Virus record (IMG/VR): IMGVR_UViG_3300018080_000171
Origin: a virus
Length of the DNA stretch: 64,000 nt
Direction: 5' to 3' (one strand)
Below, piece by piece: positions 9,909-25,017 of this stretch. Both the position numbers and the translations under genes were made by a program. The notes under the pieces were generated by a model. It saw only the letters and a list, made by a program, of their open reading frames with translations. It made no database searches and had not been told where the DNA came from. Numbering within the stretch: position 1 is the stretch's first letter; each line of letters starts with the position of its first letter.

Positions 9909-9913
9909 TTTTT

Positions 9914-10167: not shown

Positions 10168-10191
10168 CTTTATTTAGGAAATAGAAGTATT

Positions 10192-10617
10192 ATGGAATAT
10201 AAAGATAATGGTAATAGTGATTTAAAGAACGGTTTTATTGCTTTGTGTATCTTTGGGTTAATAGTCTTAGGTATAAATTCTTGTTGTTCTTTAACTAAAA
10301 AGGGAGTAGAGAAAGCAGTTGTTGCGGAAAAAAATCACGAAGAGAAAGTAGCTGAATATAAAAGCTCTCGGGAATATAAGGATAAATTGGCCAGAGAAGA
10401 AAGATATTGGGCTTTATCTGATGAAGAAAGAGAAGCTATGGATGAAGCTGATGGTCTTTGGAAAGAAGGTGATTTCACTTTCGCAAGAGATGGTGAAACA
10501 TCATTTATAGAGTCCTGTTGCTGGGTCATATTCTGGCTCTTCTTTACTTCAGCTGCTTTCGCATTGATGCCAGAACTAGCAATACAAGAGTTGTTTGGTC
10601 ATAAGGATAGAAAATAA
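10192..10617 (+). CDS. membrane-anchored protein (141 aa; N- and C-terminal hydrophobic segments, Glu/Lys-rich middle)
   Basis: Start MEYKD follows a GGAAATAG RBS. The upstream extension of the listed ORF overlaps tRNA-His. Confidence 0.45.
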   Translation: MEYKDNGNSDLKNGFIALCIFGLIVLGINSCCSLTKKGVEKAVVAEKNHEEKVAEYKSSREYKDKLAREERYWALSDEEREAMDEADGLWKEGDFTFARDGETSFIESCCWVIFWLFFTSAAFALMPELAIQELFGHKDRK

Positions 10618-10650
10618 GTAGTAAAGATATACGATGAAAGATGAGAAAAA

Positions 10651-10690
10651 ATGGACCCTTAGTTCAATAGTAGAACGGGGTGCTCAATCT
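10651..10690 (+). ncRNA. tRNA 5'-half-like fragment (GGACCCTTAGTTCAATAGTAGAACGGGG...)
   Basis: Acceptor/D-arm-like sequence with no T-arm. Confidence 0.2.
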
Positions 10691-10705
10691 TTTAAAAATA
10701 AATAT

Positions 10706-10791
10706 TTGGAATAAGGCACTCTTAGCTCAGTCTGGCCTAGAGCGGCAAGCTCATAACTTGCGGGTCGTTGGTTCAAATCCAACAGGGTGCA
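10706..10791 (+). tRNA. tRNA-Met(CAT), third CAT tRNA
   Basis: Acceptor GCACTCT/AGGGTGC, D-arm GCTC/GAGC, anticodon stem GCAAG/CTTGC with loop CTCATAA, T-arm GTTGG-TTCAAAT-CCAAC. Confidence 0.7.
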
Positions 10792-11084
10792 TTATACTTT
10801 TAATGACCATACAGGGATACTTAAAATATCATTATCTAATTCCCAGTGGTGATTACCACATAGCAGAACCAAATTAGAAGGGTCATTTATCTCTTTTATT
10901 TTTGTATTTGGCGAAAAAACTTTAATATCTTTGATATGACAAGTTTCAACGTGTAAAGAATATGTTATTATATACGTAACACTTGTCCACCAGACACTAA
11001 AAAACTGAAACTTATAACACTGTAAATGATAATTTTGCGGGAATAAAAAATGATAACAGAAATTGATGAAATAGAGGATATATA

Positions 11085-11441
11085 ATGTCGCTTAATTCAC
11101 AAACAGTTGTTCTTCCTCGAAGAGAAGAAAATCTTGTCGCTATTGTTAAATTTAATAGTAGAGGTGAAGAAAAAGATGGTATGAAAAATATTGTCCAGGG
11201 AATTACTAATTGGGTAAAACATACTGAAGAAGGTAAAGCCGCTTGGAGATATACAGTTGGCGATCTTAATATAGGAGATTTAGATTCCTATCTGGATCCT
11301 AGACATAATGTATTGTACCAGTATCTTAACAAACAAGGCATTTACAATCTTGATATTCATATCATAGGCACAGGCGATTATGCCAGAGACTATCACTATG
11401 ACACTATATTGGTAGATGAATTACAGTTGGATGAAGAGTAG
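11085..11441 (+). CDS. hypothetical protein (118 aa)
   Basis: ATG ORF preceded by a CACCAGACAC motif (about 10981) and a GAGGATATATA RBS. Confidence 0.5.
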   Translation: MSLNSQTVVLPRREENLVAIVKFNSRGEEKDGMKNIVQGITNWVKHTEEGKAAWRYTVGDLNIGDLDSYLDPRHNVLYQYLNKQGIYNLDIHIIGTGDYARDYHYDTILVDELQLDEE

Positions 11442-11510
11442 TCCACCAGACACTTAAAAATCGAATCTTATAACACCGAATGGTAATTTATTTTATTAAA
11501 GGGTTTAAAA

Positions 11511-11708
11511 ATGAGTAACATGAGATATTGTATGTTTCAGAAAACAGTTGGCGATATGGAAGATTGTATCGAAAGAATCGATGAAAACGATGTAAGCGAC
11601 CTCTCTGATGAAGAGCAGACAGCATATGAAGAGTTCATTGAGCATTGCGTTAATATCGCTATCGATCATGGTCACGTTATTAACAGAGAGTGTGAAGAAG
11701 TAAATTAA
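11511..11708 (+). CDS. small acidic protein (65 aa)
   Basis: ATG ORF downstream of a promoter motif. Confidence 0.45.
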   Translation: MSNMRYCMFQKTVGDMEDCIERIDENDVSDLSDEEQTAYEEFIEHCVNIAIDHGHVINRECEEVN

Positions 11709-11720
11709 AAAGGTTTAAAA

Positions 11721-11927
11721 ATGAAGATTTGGCTAACAATTAAGTTTATTGTAGCATGTATATCAGGTTGTGTTCTAACGAGAGGTTTCCGAGATGTATT
11801 AGGGATGAATCATGCCTTTTTTGGTCTTGTTCATTTCATTCTTAATTGGGCTTGGATAAGTTATTGTTGGAATTTTTATTTTCCGGAAAAAGTTAACACT
11901 GATATCGATTTCAAGGATTTAAAATGA
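11721..11927 (+). CDS. small membrane protein (68 aa)
   Basis: Hydrophobic ORF. Confidence 0.4.
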   Translation: MKIWLTIKFIVACISGCVLTRGFRDVLGMNHAFFGLVHFILNWAWISYCWNFYFPEKVNTDIDFKDLK

Positions 11928-12169
11928 GTAAATCAGAGAACGAAAAAATTGCAGCACTGCTTCGGAAAGATAGTTTAGAAGACTTATGTAGTCTACTTAC
12001 TGACCCTTGCGATGGTTGTGACGTTGACAGTAATAGATGTTCTAGTCCTATCACTTGTGGTTACACCGAACAAGATGGTTTAAGAATTGGTGCTCAGCAC
12101 GCAATGATTGAGTTAAGAAGACGAAAAGAAATTATAGATAGAGCATTACACGCGGGTAAAGATTATTAG
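11924..12169 (+). CDS. hypothetical protein (81 aa); its 3' end overlaps tRNA-Lys
   Basis: ATGA start overlaps the previous stop. Confidence 0.45.
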   Translation: MSKSENEKIAALLRKDSLEDLCSLLTDPCDGCDVDSNRCSSPITCGYTEQDGLRIGAQHAMIELRRRKEIIDRALHAGKDY

Positions 12170-12226
12170 GTAAATCACCTGCCTCTTAAGCAGGAGTCTT
12201 CTCGGTTCAAATCCGAGTACCCGCAA
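12152..12226 (+). tRNA. tRNA-Lys(CTT)
   Basis: Acceptor GCGGGTA/TACCCGC, anticodon stem CCTGC/GCAGG with loop CTCTTAA, T-arm CTCGG-TTCAAAT-CCGAG. Paralogue of tRNA-Lys(TTT). Confidence 0.65.
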
Positions 12227-12294
12227 TTAAAATAGAAAAGTGGTGAATCTTTGATGATACCAACCTAGGTAAGGGTATATAAAGGGATAATCTT

Positions 12295-12366
12295 GGCATA
12301 TAGTGTAAAAAGGCCGCACGCTGACGTTAAAGTCGGTAGTGAAGTTCGAATCTTCTATGTCCTCTA
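12295..12366 (+). tRNA. degenerate tRNA-like gene (anticodon-arm candidate CTGAC-GTTAAAG-GTCGG, giving TAA; acceptor does not pair)
   Basis: T-arm GAAG-TTCGAAT-CTTC is present. The acceptor strands are not complementary. Confidence 0.25.
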
Positions 12367-12376
12367 TTTTTATTAT

Positions 12377-12460
12377 GTTCGTGTGTCCGAATGGCTAAGG
12401 AGGCGGTCTGCAAAGCCGTTAACCCCGAAAGGGATGTGGGTTCGAATCCCACCACGAACT
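12377..12460 (+). tRNA. class-II tRNA with anticodon GCA (a Cys anticodon on a long-variable-arm scaffold)
   Basis: Perfect acceptor GTTCGTG/CACGAAC, D-stem TCC/GGA, anticodon stem GCGGT/GCCGT with loop CTGCAAA, variable hairpin CCCC-GAAA-GGG, T-arm GTGGG-TTCGAAT-CCCAC. Confidence 0.45.
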
Positions 12461-12467
12461 TTTATGG

Positions 12468-12625
12468 AAAACGAAGAAGAAAAAACTGAAGAAATTTGTA
12501 AATGGTGTCATTATGGTAAATATGACCCTTATGAAGATACAATAACCTGTATAATGACAGGTGATATTGTTGAAGAAGATGAGTTTTGTGGTGATTGGGA
12601 AGATTGGGAAGATTATACTTTATAA
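12468..12625 (+). CDS. small Cys-rich acidic protein (52 aa)
   Basis: Starts MENEEEK. The longer listed ORF from 12293 runs through two tRNAs. Confidence 0.3.
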
Positions 12626-13147
12626 AACGTTATGTTAACAGACGAAGATAAAAAAGAATACGAACTCGCATTAAGACAGGGTAAAAAGAGATTTGGCTCT
12701 CTTTGTTTTCATGCAAAAGTTCAAAATGGTAAGTGCTTGCACTGCTTTAGAAAAGTAATAAAGGATAAAAAATGAATAATTGGACAAAATATATCATATC
12801 TCAGACTGTATTATGTATTGTATATGGTGGAGTAGTAGCACTAATAGGTCTATCTCCATTAGCCGGTTTTGCCGGTGGTATAATTTTTGGAGCTATCAGC
12901 ATGGCTTCTCTTATGGCATATTTTGATTTACCTTAAAATAGGAACTCAATTTCATGAGGCAACACAATGGCACAAGATTTTTATGGTAAAACAATTAGAA
13001 CCGGCGATACTGTTCGTAAAGTTGGCAGTTCAAACGATTACACTGTAATTAAGATTGCATCAAGTTCAGGTAGCGAATTACTTGATATCGATGGAACTTG
13101 GACTGAATACGGGGTTCAGCCCGAAAATGTAATAATACAATAGATAA

Positions 13148-13232
13148 GCTCAAGTGGCGAAATTGGCAGACGCGGCAGACTAAGAATCTGTTTCCCATTA
13201 AGGGAGTGGAGGTTCAAATCCTCTCTTGAGTA
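13148..13232 (+). tRNA. class-II tRNA-Leu-like (anticodon loop CTAAGAA, read as AAG)
   Basis: Acceptor GCTCAAG/CTTGAGT, D-arm GCG-AAATTGGCAGA-CGC, anticodon stem GCAGA/TCTGT, variable hairpin CCC-ATTA-AGGG, T-arm GGAGG-TTCAAAT-CCTCT. Confidence 0.4.
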
Positions 13233-13240
13233 TTTTTAAC

Positions 13241-13324
13241 GCTCTCTTGGCGAAATTGGCAGACGCATATGGTTTAAGCCCGTATATCCGTAAGGATGTC
13301 CCGGTTCGACTCCGGGAGGGAGTA
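13241..13324 (+). tRNA. tRNA-Leu(TAA), class II
   Basis: Acceptor GCTCTCT/AGGGAGT, the same D-arm as the previous tRNA, 6-bp anticodon stem ATATGG/CCGTAT with loop TTTAAGC, variable hairpin ATCC-GTAA-GGAT, T-arm CCCGG-TTCGACT-CCGGG. Confidence 0.55.
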
Positions 13325-13354
13325 TTAAGAATGGTAGGCTTTCTAAATAATTAA

Positions 13355-13837
13355 AGGAAGCCTACCTTTTATGTAGATTGGTCAGAATATTCCATTATAT
13401 CCTCTCTTAAGCCTCACCTTATTGCCAAGCGTGGTCACAAATGTGAGAAATGCGGTTTAGAGAAATGGTTAGAAAGCCCTATTCCTCTTGAGGTAGATCA
13501 TATATCAGGCGATAGGACAGACAACCAAGAGAGCAATTTAACGCTCTTATGCTGCAACTGTCACGCTCTGACACCGACTTGGAGAGGAAGAAAAAATAAG
13601 AAAGAGCCAATAAAATACCATTGTAGTAAATGCGAAAAAGAGATAACAAGTACTTCTAAAAGTGGATTATGTGTTAAATGTGTAAAAACAACTATTTCGG
13701 CTGATATGCATTATAGGAAAGTGAAGAATAGACCTTCTGTAGAGCAACTGAAGAAAGAAATAAAAGAAACAAGTTACGCAGCTTGTGGTAGAAAATATGG
13801 AGTTTCCGATAACTCTATTCGAAAATGGATAAAATAA
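13355..13837 (+). CDS. HNH homing endonuclease with no canonical start codon in frame (possible pseudogene or non-ATG start)
   Basis: Frame encodes ...KCEKCGLEKWLESPIPLEVDHISGDRTDNQESNLTLLCCNCHALT... plus a second CxxC pair. There is no ATG, GTG or TTG between the upstream stop (13352-54) and the motif. It ends 1 nt before a tRNA. Confidence 0.4.
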   Translation, partial: RKPTFYVDWSEYSIISSLKPHLIAKRGHKCEKCGLEKWLESPIPLEVDHISGDRTDNQESNLTLLCCNCHALTPTWRGRKNKKEPIKYHCSKCEKEITSTSKSGLCVKCVKTTISADMHYRKVKNRPSVEQLKKEIKETSYAACGRKYGVSDNSIRKWIK

Positions 13838-13912
13838 GCCGGGGTAGCCCAACTGGCAAGAGGCGTTAGTTTTAGAAACTAAAGGTTGGGGGTTCAACTC
13901 CCCCTCCCGGTA
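13838..13912 (+). tRNA. type-I tRNA with anticodon TAG (a Leu CUA-reading anticodon on a short-variable-loop scaffold)
   Basis: Acceptor GCCGGGG/TCCCGGT, anticodon stem TTAGT/ACTAA with loop TTTAGAA, 5-nt variable loop, T-arm GGGGG-TTCAACT-CCCCC. Confidence 0.45.
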
Positions 13913-13978
13913 TTTAACTATTCACCAGACACTTAAAAATCGAATTTTATAGGAGTGTTAATAATAATTTGTTCAAGG

Positions 13979-14566
13979 ATGGTTATGGATTTGTTTGTAA
14001 AAAATTTAGAAGAGATAAGACAGATAGCAACTAAGTTGCATTTTATACATGGTAAACGCTATGAGGTTAATGAGCTGATCAATGCATCTTATATTTTATT
14101 CAAAAGAGCTATTACTAATAATCCTACATTGTTAGAAAAACAGTTCTCTAAACTAACTACTCTCCTTTTCAGGGTTAAATCTGATATGAAATGTTACATT
14201 AGAGATGAGACTAATTTTCGGATACAAGAAAGATTGGTAGCAAAAGGTATAGAAGTACCTATGTTTCAGAATGCTTCTTTCCAAAAAGAATACGAAGAAG
14301 ATACTATTCCTTTTGAACCTTCTAACACTGAATCTGGTTTTGAGGAATTTGAAGTAAGTGATTTTCTAGATAAACTTTTTATGGAAGTTCATTTAGAAAA
14401 TGATGAGTGGGATATAATTCAAGGTTATTTCTATGATGAAAAGGAATTAAAACAAATCGGTCAAGAGATAGGCAAGGCTGAATGTACTATTTCTACTAAA
14501 AAGAAAAAGATGTTAACAAAGATGAGGCCAACTGCACTTAAGTTAAGAGAATCTATTTTAAAATAA
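13979..14566 (+). CDS. sigma-factor-like protein (region-4-like HTH at the C-terminus)
   Basis: The C-terminal ELKQIGQEIGKAECTISTKKKKMLTKMR resembles a sigma70 region 4.2 HTH. It is preceded by a CACCAGACAC motif (about 13922). The listed ORF starts at a GTG at 13955. Confidence 0.4.
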   Translation: MVMDLFVKNLEEIRQIATKLHFIHGKRYEVNELINASYILFKRAITNNPTLLEKQFSKLTTLLFRVKSDMKCYIRDETNFRIQERLVAKGIEVPMFQNASFQKEYEEDTIPFEPSNTESGFEEFEVSDFLDKLFMEVHLENDEWDIIQGYFYDEKELKQIGQEIGKAECTISTKKKKMLTKMRPTALKLRESILK

Positions 14567-14580
14567 TGTTAAAAAAGTTG

Positions 14581-14608
14581 TTGACTTATTCTGAAAAGAT
14601 GATATAAT
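14581..14608 (+). promoter_or_regulatory. sigma70 promoter TTGACT-N16-TATAAT
   Basis: Consensus hexamers upstream of the tRNA-Glu(CTC) cluster. Confidence 0.5.
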
Positions 14609-14685
14609 AGAAAACAGATTAGAGGGTAGACCCTTTATGAGTGGTTTGGTTCAGCCTTCCACGGTAAAAAAATGGCTGAGCTGAA

Positions 14686-14758
14686 GCTCTCGTCTTCTAG
14701 TCGGGTAGGATGCGACCCTCTCAAGGTTGCGACATGGGTTCAAATCCCATCGAGAGTA
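14686..14758 (+). tRNA. tRNA-Glu(CTC)
   Basis: Homologous to the 5284 copy. Anticodon stem CGACC/GGTTG with loop CTCTCAA, canonical T-arm ATGGG-TTCAAAT-CCCAT, acceptor GCTCTCG/CGAGAGT. Confidence 0.55.
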
Positions 14759-14764
14759 TTATAA

Positions 14765-14897
14765 GTATTGAGATAGTGCTTTTTGTTCTATTGCACCGTA
14801 TCCTTCGCAGAGGCTACGAGAATAAAAGGGGAAGTAGAGTCTTGAATGCAACAAGGCGAGGGTCACAGAATACTCCGTATCTTGATACTTATTTTAT
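14765..14897 (+). ncRNA. roughly 130-nt structured spacer between tRNAs (candidate small RNA)
   Basis: GC-richer than its flanks, with multiple short hairpins. There is no ORF; the listed 65-aa ORF overlaps the tRNAs. Confidence 0.2.
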
Positions 14898-14981
14898 GCA
14901 CGCATAGTCTAATTGGATAAGGCACTGGTCTTCTAAACCAGCGGGAGTAATCCTTTCCAGGTTCGAGTCCTGGTGCGTGTG
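14898..14981 (+). tRNA. class-II tRNA with anticodon TCT (an Arg anticodon on a long-variable-arm scaffold)
   Basis: Acceptor GCACGCA/TGCGTGT, perfect anticodon stem CTGGT/ACCAG with loop CTTCTAA, variable arm about 17 nt, T-arm CCAGG-TTCGAGT-CCTGG. Confidence 0.4.
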
Positions 14982-15240
14982 TTATGAATAATTATAGAGG
15001 CATAACATATTTTAAATTTCTAGACAACCGTTTTTTTCATTGGCTGTTTAAGAAATATTTCTGTAAAAAGAATATTCACCTATTCGATGAGTGCGAATCT
15101 ATTGAATGGCACTTTTTGTCTTGCGACGCTTGTGGCTTAGAGGTTCATATCAAAAAAATAATTGAAGAGAAGGATTCCGACATAGAAGATATGGAAATAA
15201 GGAATGATATAAAAGCTCCTGAAGCTTAAATGGATGAAGC

Positions 15241-15314
15241 ACCCTTATAGTATAACAGGATAGAACAATTGCCTCCTAAGCTTTATGTCCTGGTTCGAGT
15301 CCAGGTAAGGGTAA
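15241..15314 (+). tRNA. tRNA, anticodon unresolved (candidate loop CTCCTAA, read as CCT)
   Basis: Perfect acceptor ACCCTTA/TAAGGGT and T-arm CCTGG-TTCGAGT-CCAGG. The interior stems are mismatched. Confidence 0.4.
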
Positions 15315-15436
15315 TAAAAAATATTGGATAAAAAAGAAGTGATAGTAGCTTATGTCTGTAAAAGAAGTTTCGAATCGTTATTTTTTACACCAGATGAAAG
15401 AAAAAACTATAATATTATTGTTAAGAAAGTAAAAAA

Positions 15437-15646
15437 ATGAAACACGAAATCGAAGAAGCAACAAGAGCAATCTTAAGACAATCAATCACGGCTGCTCGAA
15501 GTAAATTTAACTTAAATCGCAAAGATGCTGAAAGTTATGTTCGCAGAAATCTTGGCACTTGCGATGTCCACGATGCTTTGATGGAAGCTATTGCGGATGA
15601 CATTGCCGAACAAAAAGAGTATGAAAAAGGCATGAAAGATATATAA
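15437..15646 (+). CDS. small hypothetical protein (69 aa)
   Basis: ATG ORF lying between tRNAs. Confidence 0.4.
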   Translation: MKHEIEEATRAILRQSITAARSKFNLNRKDAESYVRRNLGTCDVHDALMEAIADDIAEQKEYEKGMKDI

Positions 15647-15729
15647 GCCCGCGTAGCTCAGTCCGGATTAGAGCAGTACGCTACGAACGTAAAGGTCAGG
15701 AGTTCAAATCTCTTCGCGGGTATTTATTG
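15647..15729 (+). tRNA. tRNA-Arg(ACG)
   Basis: Acceptor GCCCGCG/CGCGGGT, D-arm GCTC-AGTCCGGATTA-GAGC, anticodon loop CTACGAA, T-arm AGGAG-TTCAAAT-CTCTT. Confidence 0.65.
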
Positions 15730-15737
15730 CCCGAGTA

Positions 15738-15813
15738 ACGCAAATTGGCATCGCTCTGATACTCAAAGCATCAGGTTTGTGAGTTCGACTCTCACCTCGG
15801 GTACTTATTTTAA
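15738..15813 (+). tRNA. type-I tRNA with candidate anticodon CAA (a Leu UUG-reading anticodon; loop CTCAAAG)
   Basis: Acceptor GCCCGAG/CTCGGGT, T-arm GTGAG-TTCGACT-CTCAC. The anticodon stem has an A:C closing pair. Confidence 0.4.
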
Positions 15814-16146
15814 ATTAGAAATTATGATTTTTACGTCATTAAAAGCTTCTTTTAGTATCTTATCAGTTGATACTAAATCAGGGATTACTATAAGATTGAT
15901 GTCTTTGTTAGATGCTATCTTAAGTTTTTCGGTATCTCTAGTTTGAATATTATCTAATTTGGTTTGACCATAGATAGGTTTAAAGTGAACAATGCCATTC
16001 CATTCAATAGCAAGTTGAAGTTCTGGAATAGCGATATCAACTTCATAACCATCTAACATAGTTTTATCATTAGATAAAATATCAAGTTGAGGAAACTCTT
16101 TAACTATTAGGTCATAGAACTTAGCTTCTATTTTAGAATACCTCAA
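15805..16146 (-). CDS. DUF559/Vsr-like (PD-(D/E)xK) endonuclease-domain protein; the only minus-strand gene
   Basis: GYEVDIAIPELQLAIEWNGIVHF matches the DUF559 core (D...(E/K)xAIE.DG..H). 113 aa. Confidence 0.5.
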   Translation of the reverse strand: MRYSKIEAKFYDLIVKEFPQLDILSNDKTMLDGYEVDIAIPELQLAIEWNGIVHFKPIYGQTKLDNIQTRDTEKLKIASNKDINLIVIPDLVSTDKILKEAFNDVKIIISNLK

Positions 16147-16322
16147 ATCCTTTTTATTTTTTTGTAAAAACTTTTTGAGGGACTCCGAGTCGGGGTATTA
16201 GGATATGCTCATTTTAAATTAGAGAGATACTGGCGTTTTTAAGTCTCTCTTTTTTTTTCGCGGAAAAATAAACTCACCAGACACTAAAAAATCCAATCTT
16301 ATAGGAGTAGAAAGGTAAGATT

Positions 16323-16700
16323 ATGAGAATAGGTATAGATTTAGACAATACGATTACAGCAACTTCTAAGAGTAAGAAATTCTTTTCGATGTTAAGTAGT
16401 TTTTTCTCGAAATGTGGAACTATTTATATTATAACACATAGAAGTAATGATAAACAGTCAATTCTAGAGACTAAAAAGGAATTAGAAGAGTTAGATATAA
16501 CTTATGATCATCTTATTATTACGGGAGAAAAAGATAAATTTATTGTAAATGAAGGGATAGAAGTTTATTTTGATGATACAGATGAATACTTTTTAGACTT
16601 ACCTCCAGAAGTATTAGTTTTTAAGATTAGAGAAGAGGGGAACTTTGATTTCTTTGAAAGAAAATGGGTATATGGAGATGAAACAGGTTTAAAAATTTAA
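16323..16700 (+). CDS. HAD-superfamily hydrolase-like protein
   Basis: N-terminal GIDLDNT matches HAD motif I (DxDxT). 125 aa. Confidence 0.45.
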   Translation: MRIGIDLDNTITATSKSKKFFSMLSSFFSKCGTIYIITHRSNDKQSILETKKELEELDITYDHLIITGEKDKFIVNEGIEVYFDDTDEYFLDLPPEVLVFKIREEGNFDFFERKWVYGDETGLKI

Positions 16701-16734
16701 AGGTTTTTATTCTTTTTTATCAAATGTATTATTT

Positions 16735-17319
16735 ATGAACTGGTACAAAAAATCCCAATTACAAGAGACTTTGCCATATTTTAAGGAATTCGAAGAATAT
16801 GGAGATTATGTCCCTGAAGAAGAATCTTTAAACGAACGTTTAATGGACACCTATGGCGTCTCAATCATTAATGATATTGGACAAGGAGACTCAGGAATTG
16901 CTTATCTTTTATCTGATGGTAATGTTCTAAAGATTACTACGAATTCTCAAGAAGGACAGGTTGCAGATTATATAAAAAATAATCCTAATCCCCATATCAT
17001 TGGATATAAAGATGTATGGAAGGAAAAAGATTTATACTATATCATCATGGAAAAAATAGACGAAATGGTATCAGATAATGTCGAACTAACATCTTTTTTT
17101 GAACACTTAAATGATTTAATGGATAGATATAAGTGTTATAATCCTCAATGTGCATATAATCTCATAGCCAAAGAAACTTCTATTCCAGAAGATAAAAAAA
17201 ATGTTCTTTTAGAATATCTGATGTATTTGTCGAGTGTCCCTTTAAAGATTTTTGATTTTCTTAATCCTAATAACATCGGGATTAAAAATGGTCGATTGAT
17301 ATTCTTCGATATTACTTAA
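16735..17319 (+). CDS. protein-kinase-like protein
   Basis: Gly-rich loop IGQGDSGIAY, Lys in VLKIT, and a catalytic-loop-like FDFLNPNNIG. The N-terminus MNWYKK is shared with the ORF at 60936. Confidence 0.4.
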   Translation: MNWYKKSQLQETLPYFKEFEEYGDYVPEEESLNERLMDTYGVSIINDIGQGDSGIAYLLSDGNVLKITTNSQEGQVADYIKNNPNPHIIGYKDVWKEKDLYYIIMEKIDEMVSDNVELTSFFEHLNDLMDRYKCYNPQCAYNLIAKETSIPEDKKNVLLEYLMYLSSVPLKIFDFLNPNNIGIKNGRLIFFDIT

Positions 17320-17560
17320 AAAACGAGAGAGATAAAATTTTAGTTCTCTCTTTTTTTTCGCGAAAAATTAAACTCACCAGACACTAAAAAATCGTATCTT
17401 ATAGAAATAGAAAGCTAAGATTATGCCATTGAAAAATAAAAGAACTATTATAAAACAATTTTTAGGAAGTTTTACGAATGGGTAGGAAAGTAGAAGTAAG
17501 GGATAATAAAGGTAATATCATTTTCGTTTACTATATCGTTCCTGGAAAGAAGAATACAGA

Positions 17561-17848
17561 ATGAAACTATACATAAGTAGAGACGAAGACAGTGATGACA
17601 TTTGGCTATGGCTCCAACCCAGGAAGGGTAACTGGAAACCAGAAAATGTCTGCGGAAAAGAATGCGTTAATTTTCAACGTCAATCGATGGACGAAATAGA
17701 TAGATATTGTTGCTATGATAAGACCGACTTCAAAAACAAGTTCGGACAACTTATCAATAAAAAGACCTGTAAGTGCGTCCACCTGCCTAATGAACTAGTT
17801 ATGGATAACGTAGACGCTAAGTATGGTTTGTATATCCACAAAAAATAG
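17561..17848 (+). CDS. Cys-rich small protein (95 aa)
   Basis: Multiple CxxC-like pairs. Confidence 0.4.
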   Translation: MKLYISRDEDSDDIWLWLQPRKGNWKPENVCGKECVNFQRQSMDEIDRYCCYDKTDFKNKFGQLINKKTCKCVHLPNELVMDNVDAKYGLYIHKK

Positions 17849-17920
17849 TCACCAGACACTAGAAAATCTAATATTATAGAAGCAACGAAACAAAACTTTT
17901 ATTTTTTTAGGAATTGTAAA

Positions 17921-19657
17921 ATGAATGATGCACCAACAAAAACGAGACGGCAGTTAAAAATGCATCCTAATCTTCTATTGGATGTAATTGGTAGGCAAGC
18001 AGGCACCTTCGATAAAGCATGTTTAGAGGGTGGCATGAATGGTATTGAGGCTATTAACGCCTTAATAGAAGATGGTGGCAACTGTAAGGATAATGCTATT
18101 CGCTTTACCTATTCTATAGTAGATGGCAAAGGTATTTGCTGTATCTCGGATATGGGTAAAGGTATTACCACCAAAGAAGAAATCGAAAACTTCTTTGAAA
18201 CCTTTGGTACTCCACATGACGAAAGCGAGCATAAAATCTACGCTCAATTCAGAATGGGTAGAGGTCAAATGTTTAACTTCGGTAAAAACGTATGGAGAAC
18301 AGGCACTTTCGAGTTGACAGTCGATGTCCTTAAGAATGGTCTTGAATGGGAATTAAAAGAGAATCTTCCATTCGTAGAAGGCTGTCATATTACCATTGAA
18401 CTATATGACAAATATCTTAATCTCTATCCTACTAGGACGGTAGAGAGTTTGAAAGATGCTGTTAAGCAACAGATGGAATATGTAAGTACTCCAGTTTTCT
18501 TCAATAATGAACAAATCAGTTTTCCTCCAGAATCTCTTAAATGGGATTTTGAAGATGAATTCGGTTATTATATGTTTAATAATGGCGATGATTTAAAGAT
18601 TTACAATCTTGGCGTATATGTCAAGGAAAAATGGAATACGCAAGGCATCGTTGTTAGTAAGAGACAGATGAAGGTAAATTTTGCCCGGAATGATGTAATG
18701 TCGGATTGTCCAGTATGGTTTCATATGGACGAAGTTATTCGTAAAAACGTTGTTAAAAAATCCACAAAGAAGTATGTCAAACAGTCTGCTAATGAGAGAC
18801 GTTCAATGCTTAAGGATTTACGCAATGGCGTAACACTGTATAAAGATATTAAAGGGTCTAGAATCCTTCAAACGGCTCAAGACAAGTATATTACTTTTGG
18901 GATGTTCTTCAAGAGTGACCAACCTTGGACGTTTGCCGATATTGGCAGTCGTAGGGCTGATAGGCTTATCGAGAGCGAGACGCATATTGTATTCGCAAAG
19001 TCGATGCTTTATGCCTTGAACTATAATGGCGATGAGAAAATGTTCTTTAATTGGTTATTAAAGACAGTTATAGACAACAACTCTTATGGCGGTTCTAAAT
19101 GGCAAGTTAAGGATTACCATATAAACGATGTCGTAAAATCTCTTGAAAAGAAGATAAACTTTTATGAGAATTTTGAGTCTATATCGGTTCAAACTAATAA
19201 CCGATATTCTACTCTTGCCCATAATAAATTGACAAAAGTAGAGAAACGTATTCTTGATGTTATGGGCACTTGCGATTGTTGGGATGGCAGAACGATAAGA
19301 ATTGGAATATCTGATAATGCATCGGCTTGGACGGATGGTAGTTCTTACATAAATATCGACAGAGGATATTTGAAGGGTCTTAGATTTAATCGGGATTCAG
19401 ACATTACAAATCTTTTCGCTCTTTTGACTCATGAATTGGCTCATACTAATTCAACAGTAGATACCGATATTCATGGGGAAGATTTCTATGAATCCTTCCA
19501 TGAATTATGTATGTCTCGTTATAATAGTCCTATGCAACATGTTTTGTCTTTTCAGGCTAAAATGTATTCTGCAATGAGGACAGAGCAAAGAGAGAAAGAG
19601 AAAGCGAGAAAAGCAAAAGAAATGAAAGAGTTGGCTGAAAAGATGGGTAAACAATAG
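17921..19657 (+). CDS. GHKL-type ATPase domain fused to an HExxH metallopeptidase-like C-terminal domain
   Basis: N-box-like DNAIRF, G1 VDGKGICCISDMGKG and G2 GRGQMFNFGK motifs. C-terminal HELAHT...E motif. 578 aa. Confidence 0.5.
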   Translation: MNDAPTKTRRQLKMHPNLLLDVIGRQAGTFDKACLEGGMNGIEAINALIEDGGNCKDNAIRFTYSIVDGKGICCISDMGKGITTKEEIENFFETFGTPHDESEHKIYAQFRMGRGQMFNFGKNVWRTGTFELTVDVLKNGLEWELKENLPFVEGCHITIELYDKYLNLYPTRTVESLKDAVKQQMEYVSTPVFFNNEQISFPPESLKWDFEDEFGYYMFNNGDDLKIYNLGVYVKEKWNTQGIVVSKRQMKVNFARNDVMSDCPVWFHMDEVIRKNVVKKSTKKYVKQSANERRSMLKDLRNGVTLYKDIKGSRILQTAQDKYITFGMFFKSDQPWTFADIGSRRADRLIESETHIVFAKSMLYALNYNGDEKMFFNWLLKTVIDNNSYGGSKWQVKDYHINDVVKSLEKKINFYENFESISVQTNNRYSTLAHNKLTKVEKRILDVMGTCDCWDGRTIRIGISDNASAWTDGSSYINIDRGYLKGLRFNRDSDITNLFALLTHELAHTNSTVDTDIHGEDFYESFHELCMSRYNSPMQHVLSFQAKMYSAMRTEQREKEKARKAKEMKELAEKMGKQ

Positions 19658-19811
19658 ACAATTCCTTGGGGGGTAGTAGGTATTGCGTAGATATTTGCTA
19701 TCCCCCTATTTTTCTCTTGTAAGTGATTTTTATTTATGTATAATTTTTAGAGTTCACCAGACACTTAAAAATTGAATCTTATAATAATGTTAGTAATGAA
19801 GGAAATAAAAA

Positions 19812-20093
19812 ATGTATATGTTAGCGATGATACCACCACCAGTTATTGTTTTACTATTGATTGGCATAATCTTATTTTTGATGTGGCTTGTACCTTGGCT
19901 TAAGAATAGTCGAGGGGTTGACAAGCTTGCTGATAACCTGTTTAATCCTCCTGTATCTCATACAGTTGACGAAGCGATAGACAGTATTAAAAACAGTAAG
20001 GATGCTTTAGTTCAAGTAACTAAGGATAATGCTAAGAAGGCAAAAGACCTTGCTAAAGAATCTGCTGAGGCATTAAAAGGTTTGAAGAAGTAA
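19812..20093 (+). CDS. membrane protein with a coiled-coil tail (93 aa)
   Basis: N-terminal TM segment and a Lys/Ala-rich C-terminus. Confidence 0.4.
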   Translation: MYMLAMIPPPVIVLLLIGIILFLMWLVPWLKNSRGVDKLADNLFNPPVSHTVDEAIDSIKNSKDALVQVTKDNAKKAKDLAKESAEALKGLKK

Positions 20094-20273
20094 GAGTTCA
20101 CCAGACACTAAAAAATTGAATCTTATAGTAATGTAAGTTAGTTCTATAAAAAGTTAATAATAATTATCTTTAAGGGAGATATTGCTATGAAGTAAAAGTG
20201 GATGTAGTAAACACGTAGTAAATGTAGTAGAAGTATTAAACTAAAATGTATTTAAATGTAAGGAGTTCCGTTT

Positions 20274-21575
20274 ATGGGACCTAAAAGTATCACAGTAATA
20301 GTATTGGTCGTAATTGCTCTTGGAGCAGTTGTAGCAGGAATGAATGGTTATTTTGGTCAGAATGACGACCAGGACTGGCAAGTCCTCCAGAGTCCGTTCG
20401 GCACGATGTCGGTCCGAACCGATTCAGGTATTTATCAGAAGCAGTTTGCGAACGCTTGGACTTATCCGAAAGTTCAGCGAGTATACTTCTCTTCTGATGT
20501 TAGAGAAGGTTCTTCTCTTGATGAATCTTGTAAAGTAGTTTTCAGCGATAAGGGTACGGCATCTTTCTCGACTATGGTATTGTATCGTTCTCCTTATATG
20601 TTGAGCGGTTTAGCTATTCCTGATATTAATGACGAAGGGGATCAGCCTAAAGGTTTGAAAGAAGGAGCGGTAGCAAACTTCCATCGTCTTTGTAAGGGCG
20701 ATATTAAGATTGCCGATGCGACAGTTTTAGCAAGACTTAAAGAGTATGCACGTATTGTCGCTTCGGATTACAATGCTTCGCAGTCAGTTGATAGTCAGGA
20801 CGCTTTTATCGCTTCAATTCGTAAGTCTTTGAAAGAAGACAAGACTCTCGTATCTTATGGTATTGATGTTGAAGAAGTAACTCTCAGCGATATTTCCTTT
20901 GACGCTAAGACGATTGCTCAGTTTGAGAAACAGCAAGAAGCTATTTTGGCATCGAAAGAGGCTGAAGCTAGAAAAATTCAGTACGATATGCAGAAGCTTG
21001 AGACTGATGCCCAGTATGCTCAGAAGATTGCCGAGCAAAAGGGTATTGCCGAGATGGAAAAGATGAAACAAACCACGGATGCTGCAAGAGACGCAGAACT
21101 CGCGACTATCGAAGCTCAGAAGAATGTTGACGTTGCTACTCTAGCTAAGGTTCAAGCCGAGACAGAAGCGGCTATGAAAGAGTCAGTAGCTAAGATTGAA
21201 AAAGAAGCCGCTCTTATCGTTGCTAGTAAGTCTTTTGAAGTTGCTCAGATTGCGGCTAACGAAGCTGAAGAAGAGAAAAAAGCAATGATTTCTCTTGCTG
21301 AAGGTAAACAGAAGTCTATTGAGCTTTCAGGAGCTATTACCGAGCAAGAAGAAGTTTTGGCTAAGATTGCTGCTCAGAGAGACGTAAGTATCTCAGCAAA
21401 CTATGCTAAGATTGCTGTTCCTAGTACTATCTTTATGGGCGGCGGTAGTTCTGACGGTAAGGGTTCGGCTGATTACTTCGGTAATCTTATGAGTTATGCA
21501 CTTGCTCAGAACACTGGACTTCTTCCTAAAGAAAGTCCTAAGTTTGTACCTATCAAAGTATTACCTAGTAAGTAG
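20274..21575 (+). CDS. SPFH/band-7 (flotillin/prohibitin-like) membrane protein
   Basis: N-terminal TM segment followed by a beta-rich region, then a long Ala/Glu/Lys/Gln-rich coiled coil typical of SPFH proteins. Confidence 0.45.
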   Translation: MGPKSITVIVLVVIALGAVVAGMNGYFGQNDDQDWQVLQSPFGTMSVRTDSGIYQKQFANAWTYPKVQRVYFSSDVREGSSLDESCKVVFSDKGTASFSTMVLYRSPYMLSGLAIPDINDEGDQPKGLKEGAVANFHRLCKGDIKIADATVLARLKEYARIVASDYNASQSVDSQDAFIASIRKSLKEDKTLVSYGIDVEEVTLSDISFDAKTIAQFEKQQEAILASKEAEARKIQYDMQKLETDAQYAQKIAEQKGIAEMEKMKQTTDAARDAELATIEAQKNVDVATLAKVQAETEAAMKESVAKIEKEAALIVASKSFEVAQIAANEAEEEKKAMISLAEGKQKSIELSGAITEQEEVLAKIAAQRDVSISANYAKIAVPSTIFMGGGSSDGKGSADYFGNLMSYALAQNTGLLPKESPKFVPIKVLPSK

Positions 21576-21740
21576 TATCCCCCTTTTATATAGCTTAACA
21601 GCACAAACCCCTATCAGTTAATCCACTTTCTGATAGGGTTTTTTTCGCGAAAAGATATAGACTATGTCTTGTTACCAGACACCAAAAAATCCAATATTAT
21701 AGTAGTAACGAAAACAAAATACTTTTTAAGGAATTGTAGA

Positions 21741-22607
21741 ATGAAAAAACCATTAGGACTAATACTGTATAAGGGACCTTCTAATATTGATGGTAGGATG
21801 ATAGTAGTTATTGCTACCTTTAAATCGTCTAACGATAAGACTGGTAAGATGGTTCAAACTTGGATAATGTGTGCCGATGTTGACCCTATTCTAGCTATTA
21901 AAGAAGGTAGGGATTATTCTGTATGCGGCAATTGTAAACACAAACATATTGGGTCTTGTTATGTCAATATAGCATTCGGTCCTGATAATGCTTTTAAAGC
22001 CTATATTAAAGACAAATATACTCATTATAACAGTAGTCATGATTCTATGTTTAAAGGTCGAGAATTAAGATTAGGGGCTTATGGTGACCCAGCGGCAGTA
22101 CCTATCGAAGTGTGGGATAAGTTTACTGCTCTTTCCGATGGTCATACAGGATATACTCACCAGTGGAACACTCGCAAGGTACACCCACGGCTTAAAGATT
22201 ATTGTATGGCAAGTTGCGATAATGAAGCTGAATACCAAAAAGCTAAAAAGTTGGGTTGGAGGTCTTTTAGGATTAGATTAAATAAAGACCAGCCATTACT
22301 TGAAAATGAGTTTGTCTGCCCTGCTAGTAATGAAGCTGGCAGAAAAACAAGTTGTAATAAATGTAGGGCTTGTATGGGGCTTGAAGCAAAAACCCAAAAA
22401 GACCCTTGTATTATTATTCATGGTCTCCCGCATAAGCTTGAAAAGTTTAAATGGGGTATGGAGCGTATCGCATGGAAAGAAGCCTATCGTAAGGTATTTA
22501 ATTATCCACCACCAAAAAAGAAAAAAAATCGGAGGAAAAAGGTGGTATCAAAAGTAAAAAGGAAAGTATCACCAGACACCAAAAAATCGGAACTTATAGT
22601 AGTATGA
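21741..22607 (+). CDS. hypothetical Cys-rich protein with a Lys-rich C-terminus (288 aa)
   Basis: Start MKKPLG follows an AAGGAATTG RBS. The listed 21669 start lies inside the promoter motif. The C-terminus is encoded by the next motif copy. Confidence 0.5.
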   Translation: MKKPLGLILYKGPSNIDGRMIVVIATFKSSNDKTGKMVQTWIMCADVDPILAIKEGRDYSVCGNCKHKHIGSCYVNIAFGPDNAFKAYIKDKYTHYNSSHDSMFKGRELRLGAYGDPAAVPIEVWDKFTALSDGHTGYTHQWNTRKVHPRLKDYCMASCDNEAEYQKAKKLGWRSFRIRLNKDQPLLENEFVCPASNEAGRKTSCNKCRACMGLEAKTQKDPCIIIHGLPHKLEKFKWGMERIAWKEAYRKVFNYPPPKKKKNRRKKVVSKVKRKVSPDTKKSELIVV

Positions 22608-22828
22608 AAAAGAAAACAAGTATAATACTAAAAGACGAATTTGATAATCCTAATATATGGAAGCATATAGCCATATCATTAGGATAATCACCAGACACTT
22701 AAAAATCTAAGTTTATAGAGTTGAAGGGTAAACTTGTCACTTACCGCAAAATTAGAATAAGGTGGACAATCAAAAAAACAAACCTCTAACTATAGACTTA
22801 GGTTTTTAATTTAAAAGGGAATTTAATC

Positions 22829-24136
22829 ATGTCAGAAATAGTAGAACACAAAAAATTCATATGCGTAAACTTTAAAGCGTCAAACAATAATAAGGTTTGG
22901 CAATATACTATATATAAAGATGGTTCGGCTTTAACCGAGTGGGGTAGAGTAGGTCAAAACCTACAAAGCAAAATGACCACTGAATCAGCTGCGTTATCTA
23001 AAATGCGTAAAAAGACTAATCCGAATAATGCTTCTGATAAACTCTATACAGAAGTTAAAGTGGCAGAAGGTACAGAAGGCTCATCGAGTTCTGGCAGAGT
23101 AGTTAATTCTTCAAGTTTGAAGTCTATTGCTCAAAAGCAAATTGATATTAAAGACCCAACATTAAAAGAATTAGTTGACTTTCTCGTTAAAGAAAATGTC
23201 CACGATATTGTACAAGCTTCGTCAGGTTCTATTCAATATGACACTTCATCGGCTCAATTCAAGACTCCACTAGGGGTTATACTGCCCGAAATGGTATCTG
23301 ATGCTAGAGATTTACTAGATGATATGGCTGATTATGTAGTCAACCAAAAATTTGATAGTGTCGTATTGGCAAGGAAATTAAACGAATACTTACGGTTAAT
23401 ACCTCACGCGGTGGGAATGAAAAAGATTACACCAGAACTTATCTTACCGAATGCCACAGCATTACAGACAGAGAATAACTTGTTAGATGGCTTAACAGCT
23501 TCTTTCAATAATATACATTCGGGGGCTATCGCTAAATCGTGTAAAAAAGATATAGTACAACCTAGACTATTCGATGTTACGCTTGATGTGGTAAGAGATA
23601 GGGCTTTAATTAAAAGAATCGAATCTTATTACGAGAGTACTAAAAAAACGATGCACCAAAGTTTTCGTTATAAGTTGCATAAAGTATATGAGATAGAGAT
23701 AGGTTCCGTTAAGAAGAATTTTGCTAATATCGGCAAAAGTGTGGGAAATATACAGGAGTTATTTCACGGAACTAAATGCTCTAATCTTCTTGCTATTCTT
23801 AAAAAAGGGCTTATAATTCCTCCATCACGATCAGGACATGTTACTGGTCGTTTATATGGCGATGGGGTTTATGCGTCAGATATTAGTTCAAAAGCGTTAA
23901 ATTATGCGACTAATTTTTGGGGTTCGGGTGGTTCTACAAGTAGGATTTTTATGCTTTTATGTGATTTTGCTATGGGGAATATTTATTATCCTGATGGCAA
24001 ATATGGAGTTAGATATCCTGTTAAGGGTTATGACTCTACTTTTGCAAAGGCTGGACGTGGAGGAGTGTACAATAACGAAATGATAGTATACAAAACTGGA
24101 CAAGTTAATTTGAAATATTTATTAGAGTTTAAATAA
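22829..24136 (+). CDS. poly(ADP-ribose) polymerase-like ADP-ribosyltransferase (WGR domain plus PARP catalytic domain)
   Basis: WGR signature WQYTIYKDGSALTEWGRVGQ. Catalytic H-Y-E triad in ELFHGTK, GDGVYASD and YNNEMIVY. Confidence 0.75.
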   Translation: MSEIVEHKKFICVNFKASNNNKVWQYTIYKDGSALTEWGRVGQNLQSKMTTESAALSKMRKKTNPNNASDKLYTEVKVAEGTEGSSSSGRVVNSSSLKSIAQKQIDIKDPTLKELVDFLVKENVHDIVQASSGSIQYDTSSAQFKTPLGVILPEMVSDARDLLDDMADYVVNQKFDSVVLARKLNEYLRLIPHAVGMKKITPELILPNATALQTENNLLDGLTASFNNIHSGAIAKSCKKDIVQPRLFDVTLDVVRDRALIKRIESYYESTKKTMHQSFRYKLHKVYEIEIGSVKKNFANIGKSVGNIQELFHGTKCSNLLAILKKGLIIPPSRSGHVTGRLYGDGVYASDISSKALNYATNFWGSGGSTSRIFMLLCDFAMGNIYYPDGKYGVRYPVKGYDSTFAKAGRGGVYNNEMIVYKTGQVNLKYLLEFK

Positions 24137-24201
24137 AGGATATTTTATGAGTTTTCTATAAAGTATATACCATAACCTATTTTTAGATATGGAGTGTACT
24201 T

Positions 24202-25017
24202 ATGAATAATAAATCTTACAAATATCCTTTATTGAATGATAAAGAATGGCTTTTTAAAAAATACATAGAAGATGAATTAAGCACTGTTGAAATGTGCAAA
24301 ATGGCAGGTGCCAAAACTGCTAACTCTGTTAGGCAAGCTCTAATAAGACATTCTATACCAGTTAGGACTATTGGCGATGGGTTACGAGTTAATAAAGAAG
24401 ATGGCTTTATCGCCGACAAAGAAGTTATTGACGGTTGTCTATTAGGGGATGGATTTCTTTGTAAGTGGAACAAAGAGAGTGAAAAATCGTTTCCTTATTT
24501 CGCGAAAAGAAATAAATATTATGACCATATAAAATATGTTGCTGAAATACTTTTTAAGGATAAATGGCAAGAAAGAGTCAAAGAGAACAATGAAAAGTTT
24601 TTAGATAAAAAATGTGTAGTATTTTCTCTAAGAAGTTTATCTAATAAGTCTTTAAAAACATTTTACGAGAGATGGTATCCTGAATGGAATAACTATAAAA
24701 AAATTATCCCTCAAGATATAGAGATAACTCCTAATCTGCTTTTACATTGGTTTCTAGATGATGGTAGTTCTTATCTAAGAAAACGAAATAGCAAAACTAA
24801 ACAGGTGGTTATCACTTTTTGTAGCGAATGTTTCTCGAAAGATGACCAAGAAATGATTATGGATAAAGTTAATAGCCAATTCGATTTGTCTATGAGGCTG
24901 AATAAAACTAATTCTGGGGTAGGGTATAGAATAGTAGTCCCACAATCGAAAGCTGATAATTTCTATAATATAGTTGGAGATTGTCCAGTCCCCTCTATGG
25001 AGTATAAATGGAAATAG
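24202..25017 (+). CDS. LAGLIDADG-family homing endonuclease (two motifs)
   Basis: Motif 1 IDGCLLGDGFL and motif 2 LLHWFLDDGSSYL. Free-standing, directly downstream of the PARP gene. Confidence 0.5.
   Translation: MNNKSYKYPLLNDKEWLFKKYIEDELSTVEMCKMAGAKTANSVRQALIRHSIPVRTIGDGLRVNKEDGFIADKEVIDGCLLGDGFLCKWNKESEKSFPYFAKRNKYYDHIKYVAEILFKDKWQERVKENNEKFLDKKCVVFSLRSLSNKSLKTFYERWYPEWNNYKKIIPQDIEITPNLLLHWFLDDGSSYLRKRNSKTKQVVITFCSECFSKDDQEMIMDKVNSQFDLSMRLNKTNSGVGYRIVVPQSKADNFYNIVGDCPVPSMEYKWK

Follow-up and report, generated by a model that had tools for sequence, protein, structure and literature searches.

A stretch of viral DNA of 64,000 nucleotides (nt), IMG/VR record IMGVR_UViG_3300018080_000171 (hereafter the window), carries a gene at positions 17921..19657 on the + strand whose product joins an Hsp90-like GHKL ATPase to a predicted zincin metallopeptidase domain. 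The window derives from a large phage, with all sizeable open reading frames (ORFs) on one strand and a G+C content of about 35%. The coding sequence, taken from the ORF list, encodes 578 residues, and its boundaries are exactly those given in an initial annotation made from the sequence alone, which had described the gene as a GHKL-ATPase-like domain fused to an HExxH metallopeptidase-like C-terminus. An AGGA ribosome-binding site, read directly from the sequence, lies 8 nt 5' of the ATG (17909..17912, +). In order, the product consists of the Hsp90-like GHKL ATPase, a middle domain, the zincin domain and a charged C-terminal helix. Each domain comes from a known superfamily, and as far as we found, the fusion represents a large, strictly conserved and undescribed family that is almost restricted to uncultured huge phages.

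We analyzed the protein with an alignment of the query and 31 homologs (alignment A1; 32 sequences, 41-71% identity) and with a conservation set of 257 near-full-length homologs (30-100% identity, median 40% to the query). Residues 1-200 (17921..18520, +) form an N-terminal GHKL (Bergerat) ATPase domain with an Hsp90-like N-terminal strand and helix, as supported by hhalign, profile and Pfam comparisons. Conservation and alignment to HtpG place the N-box at E36-G-G-M-N40-G-I-E43-A44 (18026..18052, +), with a putative catalytic base and Mg ligand, and the G1 box at D77-M-G79-K-G81 (18149..18163, +), with a putative adenine-binding Asp. The G2 box, or end of the ATP lid, was located by conservation at F110-R-M-G113-R-G115-Q116-M-F-N-F-G121 (18248..18283, +). 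The hallmarks of the GHKL superfamily are all present: the N-box, the G1 box, a glycine-rich G2 box flanking the lid, and an alpha/beta sandwich recognised by family models. Two of the boxes named in the initial annotation, G1 (in SDMGKG) and G2 (in GRGQMFNFGK), proved invariant. The third, DNAIRF (residues 57-62), had been taken for the N-box, but it lacks conservation and comes after an 11-residue insertion specific to the sub-clade of the query. The N-box proper reads LEGGMNGIEA (E36/N40), and its residue 43 is E or D across homologs.

When the 32 aligned members were searched singly against Pfam, HATPase_c_3 was found in 31 (best E = 3e-10) and HATPase_c in 19. Among PDB sequences, a family profile ranked the N-terminal domain of TRAP1 (E = 0.002) above MutL/PMS2 (E = 0.3-0.9). 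The TRAP1 match takes in the segment before the N-box as well as the segment that ends the domain, where the family 'veGCkItIeLY...vefvevPvlfNGeqin' aligns with TRAP1 'rtGTKIIIHLK...SNFVSFPLYLNGRRMN'. With hhalign, residues 9-165 of the query aligned with residues 4-196 of E. coli HtpG (E = 2.6e-5, probability 75%); this alignment pairs E36/N40/A44 with HtpG E34/N38/A42 (in LRELISNASDA), and D77-x-G-x-G with HtpG DNGVG. The full-length AlphaFold model, built from A1, reached a mean predicted local distance difference test score (pLDDT) of 84 and showed an Hsp90-like fold. The N-terminal fold was therefore recovered by HATPase_c_3, by the model and by Foldseek, and the outcome that the initial annotation had named as refuting, the lack of an HATPase_c-like fold, did not occur.

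Residues 201-426 (18521..19198, +) form a middle domain with an alpha/beta fold that Foldseek relates to the Hsp90 middle domain. The top 50 Foldseek matches in the PDB all belonged to the Hsp90 family (TRAP1, Hsc82/Hsp82, HtpG, GRP94 and human HSP90; E 4e-13 to 7e-11), with alignments spanning 450-480 columns for fragments of N-terminal plus middle domains (N+M) and 640-710 columns for full-length chains. Among the TRAP1 N+M fragments, 5hph_A was the best (E = 7e-13), and the range extended up to ~6e-11. MutL, GyrB, MORC and histidine kinases were all absent from these 50 matches. Hsp90 was also the best fold match among the viral models of BFVD, where Catovirus Hsp83 (E = 2.6e-10) led an rIIA (7e-9) and a phage topoisomerase II (8e-8) at identities of 9-13%; BFVD contained no true family member. 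Within the middle domain, a conserved loop, G242-IVVSKRQMKV-N253-FA-R256-ND (18644..18694, +), is a candidate counterpart, at the level of the motif, of the catalytic-Arg loop of Hsp90 (HtpG GLIDSSDLPLNVSRE). In HtpG and Hsp90 this loop carries the catalytic arginine. The family consensus, G242-[IV]-V-V-S-K-x-Q-L-K-V-N253-F-A-R256-N-D, resembles G-L-I-D-S-S-D-L-P-L-N-V-S-R-E of HtpG.

On the modelled fold we class the N-terminal and middle domains as Hsp90-like, the Arg loop being a candidate. Several results weigh against the mechanism that we build on this assignment below. The query alone fell below every Pfam threshold (HATPase_c_3, E = 0.1), the predicted template modelling score (pTM) of the full-length model was just 0.52, and beyond the N-terminal domain the sequence similarity to Hsp90 was not significant. 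In Smith-Waterman comparisons with HtpG, about two-thirds of the members aligned best at the Arg-loop segment, with z-scores of 0-4 that are individually insignificant. A plain hidden Markov model (HMM) of the 257 members gave HtpG 10 bits, rank 2 among ~2,000 shuffled HtpG decoys, one of which scored higher; because this score is marginal, we claim no sequence-level homology for the middle domain. The curated HtpG model (NCBIfam PRK05218) reached its highest score, 13.6 bits, with a single member, whereas its cut-off is 371. Given this wide margin, the protein is Hsp90-like and no Hsp90 ortholog.

The resemblance to Hsp90 extends over several features: an N-terminal domain with an Hsp90-like strand and helix and the N-, G1 and G2 boxes, its terminal segment 'G-x-x-I-x-L...P-[IV]-x-[FL]-N-G', and the collinear arrangement of N-terminal, middle and C-terminal parts. 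A further, candidate likeness is the alpha/beta middle domain, whose N-x-[AS]-R loop holds an invariant Arg. In contrast to Hsp90, to which its identity is just 9-13%, the phage protein lacks a charged linker and a MEEVD-type tail, has Cys at residue 155 instead of the Thr of 'GT', and carries a G2 box (FRMGRGQ) that is more MutL-like. At the C-terminal end, the phage domain has an intact HExxH...H zinc site and HtpG has none.

Residues 427-536 (19199..19528, +) form a minimal zincin domain composed of a helix, three strands, the HExxH helix and a further helix. Its putative zinc site, H504-E505-L-A-H508-x9-H518-G-E-D-F522 (19430..19486, +), was located by conservation and by alignment to Spartan and proabylysin, and the third zinc ligand is predicted to be H518 within HGxxF (HELAH-x9-HGxxF). 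The initial annotation had pointed to HELAH, which indeed occupies residues 504-508, ~390 residues after the G2 box; the downstream Glu that its notation HELAHT...E suggests as a ligand gives way to H518, the conserved residue. Residues 427-550 were realigned (A2) and modelled separately, with a pLDDT of 95.3 and a pTM of 0.89. In this model a first helix and three strands lead to a long helix with HExxH at its end, which is followed by an H518-bearing loop and further helices; in the full-length model, HExxH lies at the end of helix 492-507.

The A2 profile compared with PDB sequences matched proabylysin (E = 0.0033) and the SprT domain of Spartan (E = 0.17). Its alignment set HELAH on the HELAH of proabylysin (HELAH...H..F) and on the HEMIH of Spartan, and H518-G-x-E-F on H-G-P-E-F of Spartan. 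The SprT-like HGxEF is conserved in the family, as is an AWTDG strand motif upstream of HExxH. A comparison of the C-terminal domain with known zincins gave 6.3 for the Acel_2062 mini-zincin, 6.2 for selecase, 6.2 and 6.1 for two entries of Wss1, 6.0 for BepA, 5.9 for HtpX, 5.5 for projannalysin, 5.4 for proabylysin, 5.3 for an M48 peptidase, 4.4 for ArdC and 4.3 for Spartan. Pfam searches of the 32 members found WLM (PF08325) in seven (best E = 0.0033) and SprT-like (PF10263) in three (best E = 0.0036), all below the gathering threshold. Both an HExxH on a helix and a downstream third ligand are present in a minimal zincin fold, and on the modelled structure residues 427-536 are a minimal zincin of the SprT/WLM type, in Pfam clan Peptidase_MA. 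The metallopeptidase-like C-terminus with an intact HExxH, as originally proposed, is borne out by the profile, the separate model and the fold comparisons.

The domain shares its helix/three-strand/HExxH-helix/helix topology with SprT-like and WLM proteins (Spartan, Wss1) and with minimal zincins or minigluzincins (proabylysin, selecase, Acel_2062; M48 HtpX/BepA), and shares with Spartan (HEMIH...HGPEF) an HExxH followed by a His inside H-G-x-E-F. It differs from SprT/WLM zincins in the spacing of the third ligand, which lies 10 residues past the second His, compared with 5 in Wss1 and 14 in Spartan. It also lacks a Zn-binding subdomain, SHP, PIP and UBZ motifs, and ubiquitin-like modules. 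Furthermore, the known members either stand alone or rely on p97/Cdc48 for recruitment, in contrast to the fusion with a GHKL ATPase seen here.

Both sites are nearly invariant. In the conservation set, E36, N40, A44, D77, G79, G81, G113, R114, Q116, R256 and H504 were identical in 257 of 257 homologs, and R111, G115, G121, G242, N253, H508 and H518 in 256 of them; E505 was kept in 253 and F522 in 250. By our own estimate from residue frequencies, a lone HExxH is expected in ~2% of proteins of this length. Chance occurrence is excluded here because 253 of the 257 homologs keep HExxH-x(6-14)-H. Given the near-invariance of both sites, a pseudo-enzyme at either end appears unlikely from the sequences, and the retention of the HExxH glutamate favours catalysis over a purely structural metal site. 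The two-part architecture is constant across 1,577 clusters (50% identity) and in a bacterial homolog described below.

Downstream of the zincin domain, a long K/E-rich C-terminal helix (residues 537-575, by DSSP on the model) and a short tail complete the protein (19529..19654, +). Many homologs end in KLG[IV], and this protein in KMGKQ (19640-19654). Within this tail, at least 90% of the 32 A1 sequences keep G576; it is present in 129 of the 257 homologs, the remainder having mostly gaps. By analogy with MEEVD of Hsp90, the K-L-G-[IV] tail might act as a docking motif. In the order of domains, the zincin domain and the charged helix take the place of the Hsp90 C-terminal dimerisation domain, and we infer a role in dimerisation for the C-terminal helix.

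The interpretation we favour, tentatively and at somewhat less than an even chance, takes the protein to be an ATP-regulated, dimeric clamp-protease with host or phage proteins as its substrates during infection. Under this proposal, the dimer would be tethered at its C-terminal end, and binding of ATP would shut the N-terminal domains into a clamp in the manner of Hsp90. The conformational cycle might then trap a protein substrate and present it to, or gate, the two zincin sites at the base, so that ATP hydrolysis and peptidase activity would be coupled and the net activity would be that of an ATP-regulated protease. Expression would be driven by the gene's own phage-specific promoter, inside a block of ~60 genes with the same motif, and the targets cleaved during infection would most likely be particular host proteins, possibly phage proteins. 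To our knowledge, the well-studied ATP-dependent proteases (FtsH, Lon, ClpXP, HslUV and the proteasome) are all built on AAA+ motors. A GHKL/Hsp90-type ATPase and a metallopeptidase in one chain would, if true, link ATP to proteolysis by a different mechanism, and would provide a testable handle on the repurposing of Hsp90-like clamps and on the origin of the Hsp90 C-terminal domain.

An alternative is that the protein is a phage chaperone of the Hsp90 type without proteolytic activity and folds or stabilises phage proteins, which in huge phages could include the large virion or replication proteins. Its C-terminal domain would then be an equivalent of the dimerisation domain, with the His/Glu cluster serving to hold a structural metal or a client. 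The length of the Foldseek alignments to full-length Hsp90s (650-700 columns) is in line with this idea, and large phages are known to encode chaperones (PMC12619734). A structural site, however, needs no Glu, and the general base E505 is kept in 253 of 257 homologs along with all three His; the SprT-like HGxEF and the upstream AWTDG motif are conserved too, HtpG has no HExxH, and the NCBIfam HtpG model gave 13.6 bits against its cut-off of 371. We therefore regard a purely chaperone role as unlikely.

To characterize the distribution of the clamp-protease candidate, we searched for homologs in viral and cellular sequences. A word-indexed search identified at least 487 full-length homologs, nearly all of 545-610 residues, and an exhaustive profile search identified at least 1,577 clusters (50% identity, E <= 1e-3), 1,115 of them with E <= 1e-30. 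Nearly all members lie on metagenomic huge-phage contigs. The 16 carrier IMG/VR contigs measured 20-479 kb, ten of them exceeding 150 kb and several reaching 297-479 kb, and other members were found on metagenomic contigs of 93-255 kb. In these phages the family probably belongs to the infection programme. In cellular genomes (185,579 species genomes), only seven loci were found, all in metagenome-assembled genomes and in contexts resembling mobile elements that gave no functional clue.

Reference collections did not cover the fusion. PHROGs had no family for the query or the 32 members, PADLOC gave no match for the protein, its neighbours or two homologs, and NCBIfam held no covering family, yielding only generic matches of ~50 residues at the ATP-binding motif. 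Megablast of positions 17-21 kb of the window against deposited phages returned no match, and tblastn of the protein against the same phages returned only two records, both from a single Acinetobacter 'phage' assembly (25.6% identity). As none of PHROGs, PADLOC, NCBIfam or the deposited phage genomes includes the family, current pipelines annotate it as 'hypothetical'. A literature search on phage GHKL/Hsp90-like ATPases with zincin, SprT or WLM metalloproteases and on huge-phage Hsp90 found no description of the fusion. A survey of jumbo phages mentions only stand-alone SprT-like peptidases and the GHKL-containing rIIA (PMC7824862). The remark in the initial annotation that such a fusion is unusual thus holds for the curated families, PHROGs, PADLOC and the literature alike.

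The Acinetobacter record, labelled 'Acinetobacter phage MD-2021a' (CAKLQF020000023.1, 7042-10112; locus L006), resembles a bacterial contig and carries genes such as those for TetR regulators. Its homolog, of 704 residues, keeps the GHKL boxes and HEYAH...GHNFEFY, matches the NCBIfam model of the sacsin ATP-binding domain (E = 1.5e-5), and its gene immediately follows, on the same strand, one for an M48 (BepA/YfgC-like) peptidase.

We further analyzed the signals around the gene. A phage-specific promoter-like motif, CAGACACTAGAAAATCTAATATTATAG, lies 42 nt 5' of the ATG (17853..17879, +), as read from the sequence and supported by a motif count. Copies of this 27-nt motif (consensus CAGACAC-N2-AAAAAT-N6-TTATAG) occurred 67 times in the window with at most one mismatch, compared with 3.06 expected, and 66 of the 67 were on the + strand. 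The motif precedes almost every ORF over ~43 kb (10991-53893), and none of 36 related or other loci contained a copy. It is probably a promoter for one temporal class of this phage, and we would guess that the motif-bearing block is early or middle. An intrinsic-terminator-like hairpin with a 17-bp stem, a 5-nt loop and a T-run begins 11 nt 3' of the stop codon (19668..19716, +) and is the sole terminator-like site within 16000-24500. Since it has its own promoter-like motif and its own terminator, the gene is predicted to be a separate transcription unit, inside a large block of ~60 genes that share the motif.

The neighbouring genes were examined in the same way. Upstream lie an ORF at 16735-17319, previously called kinase-like, in which a G-loop-like IGQGDSG and an FFDI near the end can be seen by eye and for which Pfam, PHROGs and PADLOC gave no match, and, directly upstream of the GHKL-zincin gene, a Cys-rich ORF of 95 residues (17561-17848) without a family match in Pfam or PHROGs. 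Downstream follow an ORF of 93 residues (19812-20093) whose N-terminal hydrophobic segment reads as a single transmembrane helix, an SPFH protein (20274-21575, Pfam), a Cys-rich phrog_2554 protein of unknown function (21669-22607; PHROGs E = 1.4e-71), a PARP with WGR, regulatory and catalytic domains (22829-24136; Pfam E = 2.8e-25) and, immediately after it, a LAGLIDADG homing endonuclease (24202-25017; Pfam, PHROGs). Further copies of the 27-nt motif stand at 19758-19784, 20102-20128, 21676-21702 and 22573-22599 (+).

We compared this arrangement with ten distinct mid-distance loci, in which the protein is 40-60% identical. A homolog of phrog_2554 was present in nine, PARP within 8 kb in eight, and SPFH in six. 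Other genes of the window, at 25086, 25693, 26437, 29555, 31298 and 33881, were also collinear in these loci, and relatives below 35% identity had none of these neighbours. The region is collinear throughout and its neighbours are lost in relatives; the 'effector cluster' proposed at 16-24 kb in the initial annotation is therefore lineage synteny, with no dedicated module. A dedicated operon with the SPFH, PARP and 'kinase-like' genes was likewise rejected, given the promoter-like motifs of the individual genes, the terminator, the gene-by-gene loss and the general collinearity.

The same annotation had placed the protein among GHKL ATPases of conflict systems, as a MORC/paraMORC-type protein whose peptidase replaces the nuclease effector within an SPFH/kinase/PARP cluster. 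The best Pfam match, HATPase_c_3, is a family that also covers MORC, and NCBIfam gave weak matches at the N-box level with MzaB and the restriction enzyme BbrUII. MORC, paraMORC and MutL belong to the same superfamily, and the FRxGRG of the phage G2 box resembles the MutL motif, GFRGEAL. These matches to MzaB and BbrUII, however, cover only ~45 residues of a generic ATP-binding motif, and similarity to the MORC/paraMORC/MutL group at the sequence level was limited to the N-box and G1 (~45-60 residues). The PDB fold ranking contained Hsp90 only, with no member of this group in the top 50, and the best viral match was a giant-virus Hsp90. No defence-system model of PADLOC matched, no S5-fold transducer was identified in the phage protein, and no nuclease partner is conserved in the neighbourhood, where each gene forms a separate transcription unit and the neighbours are dispensable. 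We consider this origin very improbable.

The SPFH gene raises a different comparison. SPFH and the small transmembrane ORF directly follow the gene in the window and in L001 and L009, and SPFH also follows it in L007, L008 and L026. FtsH, an AAA+ zinc protease with the SPFH partners HflK/C, likewise unites ATPase and HExxH zincin in a single chain, and six of the ten related loci have an SPFH gene next to the GHKL-zincin gene. This likeness is one of functional analogy only: the phage ATPase is of the GHKL (Bergerat) type with no P-loop AAA+ ring, its zincin is of the minimal SprT/WLM type and not M41, the protein has no transmembrane segments, and the SPFH neighbour is dispensable.

A related possibility is that the protein is an rIIA-like, membrane-associated protector that works with the small transmembrane protein and SPFH, loosely like FtsH-HflK/C. 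Phage rIIA, whose GHKL domain is joined to a variable C-terminal domain, acts against abortive-infection or exclusion systems. An rIIA ranked high in the viral fold comparison (E = 7e-9, 748 columns), and rIIA orthologs of jumbo phages combine a GHKL domain with a variable C-terminus (PMC7824862). The protein has in common with the rIIA of T4 and of jumbo phages that it is a phage-encoded GHKL ATPase whose large C-terminal part is not a nuclease, that its overall fold is comparable and that its gene lies among small genes of unknown function; the SPFH and transmembrane ORFs that follow it fit this picture as well. Against it, hhalign of the family with T4 rIIA gave a probability of 0.2%, T4 rIIA scored below ~0.6 bits, under the matches listed for the family HMM, and no rIIA PHROG matched. 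T4 rIIA lacks HExxH, no rIIB-like partner was identified, SPFH is absent from four of the ten mid-distance loci and from all distant ones, and DSSP on the model revealed no obvious transmembrane helix. T4 rIIA was accordingly rejected as a homolog at the sequence level, the similarity in fold remaining, and we judge an rIIA-like role to be improbable.

The nearby PARP and ligase genes bear on another explanation, in which the protein is a protease for DNA-bound proteins. Its zincin would be activated by DNA as in SprT, Spartan and Wss1, and its GHKL module would be an ATP-dependent DNA clamp, as in MutL, MORC and the B subunits of type II topoisomerases. Phage DNA would thereby be cleared of covalently or tightly bound proteins, such as host nucleoid proteins, topoisomerases or nucleases that have become trapped, and ADP-ribosylated or PARP-trapped proteins. 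The SprT-like zinc signature is consistent with such a role, as are the basic middle domain (isoelectric point [pI] 9.1) and tail (pI 9.9), and a PARP with WGR lies within 8 kb in most mid-distance loci. In addition, four distant huge-phage relatives (26-28% identity) encode a nicotinamide adenine dinucleotide (NAD)-dependent DNA ligase, LigA with a BRCT domain, 1.5-4 kb downstream (L013, 7379-9457; L018, 10016-12748; L019, 9542-11743; L020, 11293-13521), and L027 has an ATP-dependent-ligase-like gene nearby. The recurrent nearness to NAD-using enzymes acting at DNA ends is a weak hint. However, the N+M fold is nearest to Hsp90 chaperones, with no DNA-clamping GHKL protein in the top 50 PDB matches, the whole protein is near neutral (pI 7.2), and Pfam recognised no DNA-binding domain in the query or the 32 members. 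The nearness of PARP and ligase is explained by general collinearity and is missing in other relatives, and cultured PARP-encoding phages (e.g., XacN1 and Xoo-sp13) lack the GHKL-zincin gene. We regard a DNA-directed protease as rather unlikely, though as the strongest alternative to the preferred clamp-protease.

Several minor observations were made on the surrounding genes. Homologs of the Cys-rich 17561-17848 ORF (42-62% identity) occur upstream of the GHKL-zincin gene in L001/L002, L008, L009 and L027; they are its immediate neighbours in L008 and L009 and lie at a distance of 1.4-1.6 kb in L001/L002 and L027. The phrog_2554 protein is the most persistent neighbour, usually encoded just upstream of PARP, and the listed TTG start of its gene in the window is probably too far upstream. 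Homologs of the PARP at 31-36% identity were found in the jumbo phages XacN1 and Xoo-sp13, in Stenotrophomonas phages CM1 and RAS14, and in the 137-147 kb Klebsiella phages KP13-16, FBKp34 and 05F01. An ORF of 697 residues at 61807-63900 had no match in deposited phages. Upstream of the gene, 32 tRNA genes, all on the + strand, are interspersed with small ORFs at 5184-15804; this array includes three tRNA-Pro(TGG) genes and two tRNA genes with long variable regions, which ARAGORN calls Val(CAC) and Asn(GTT).

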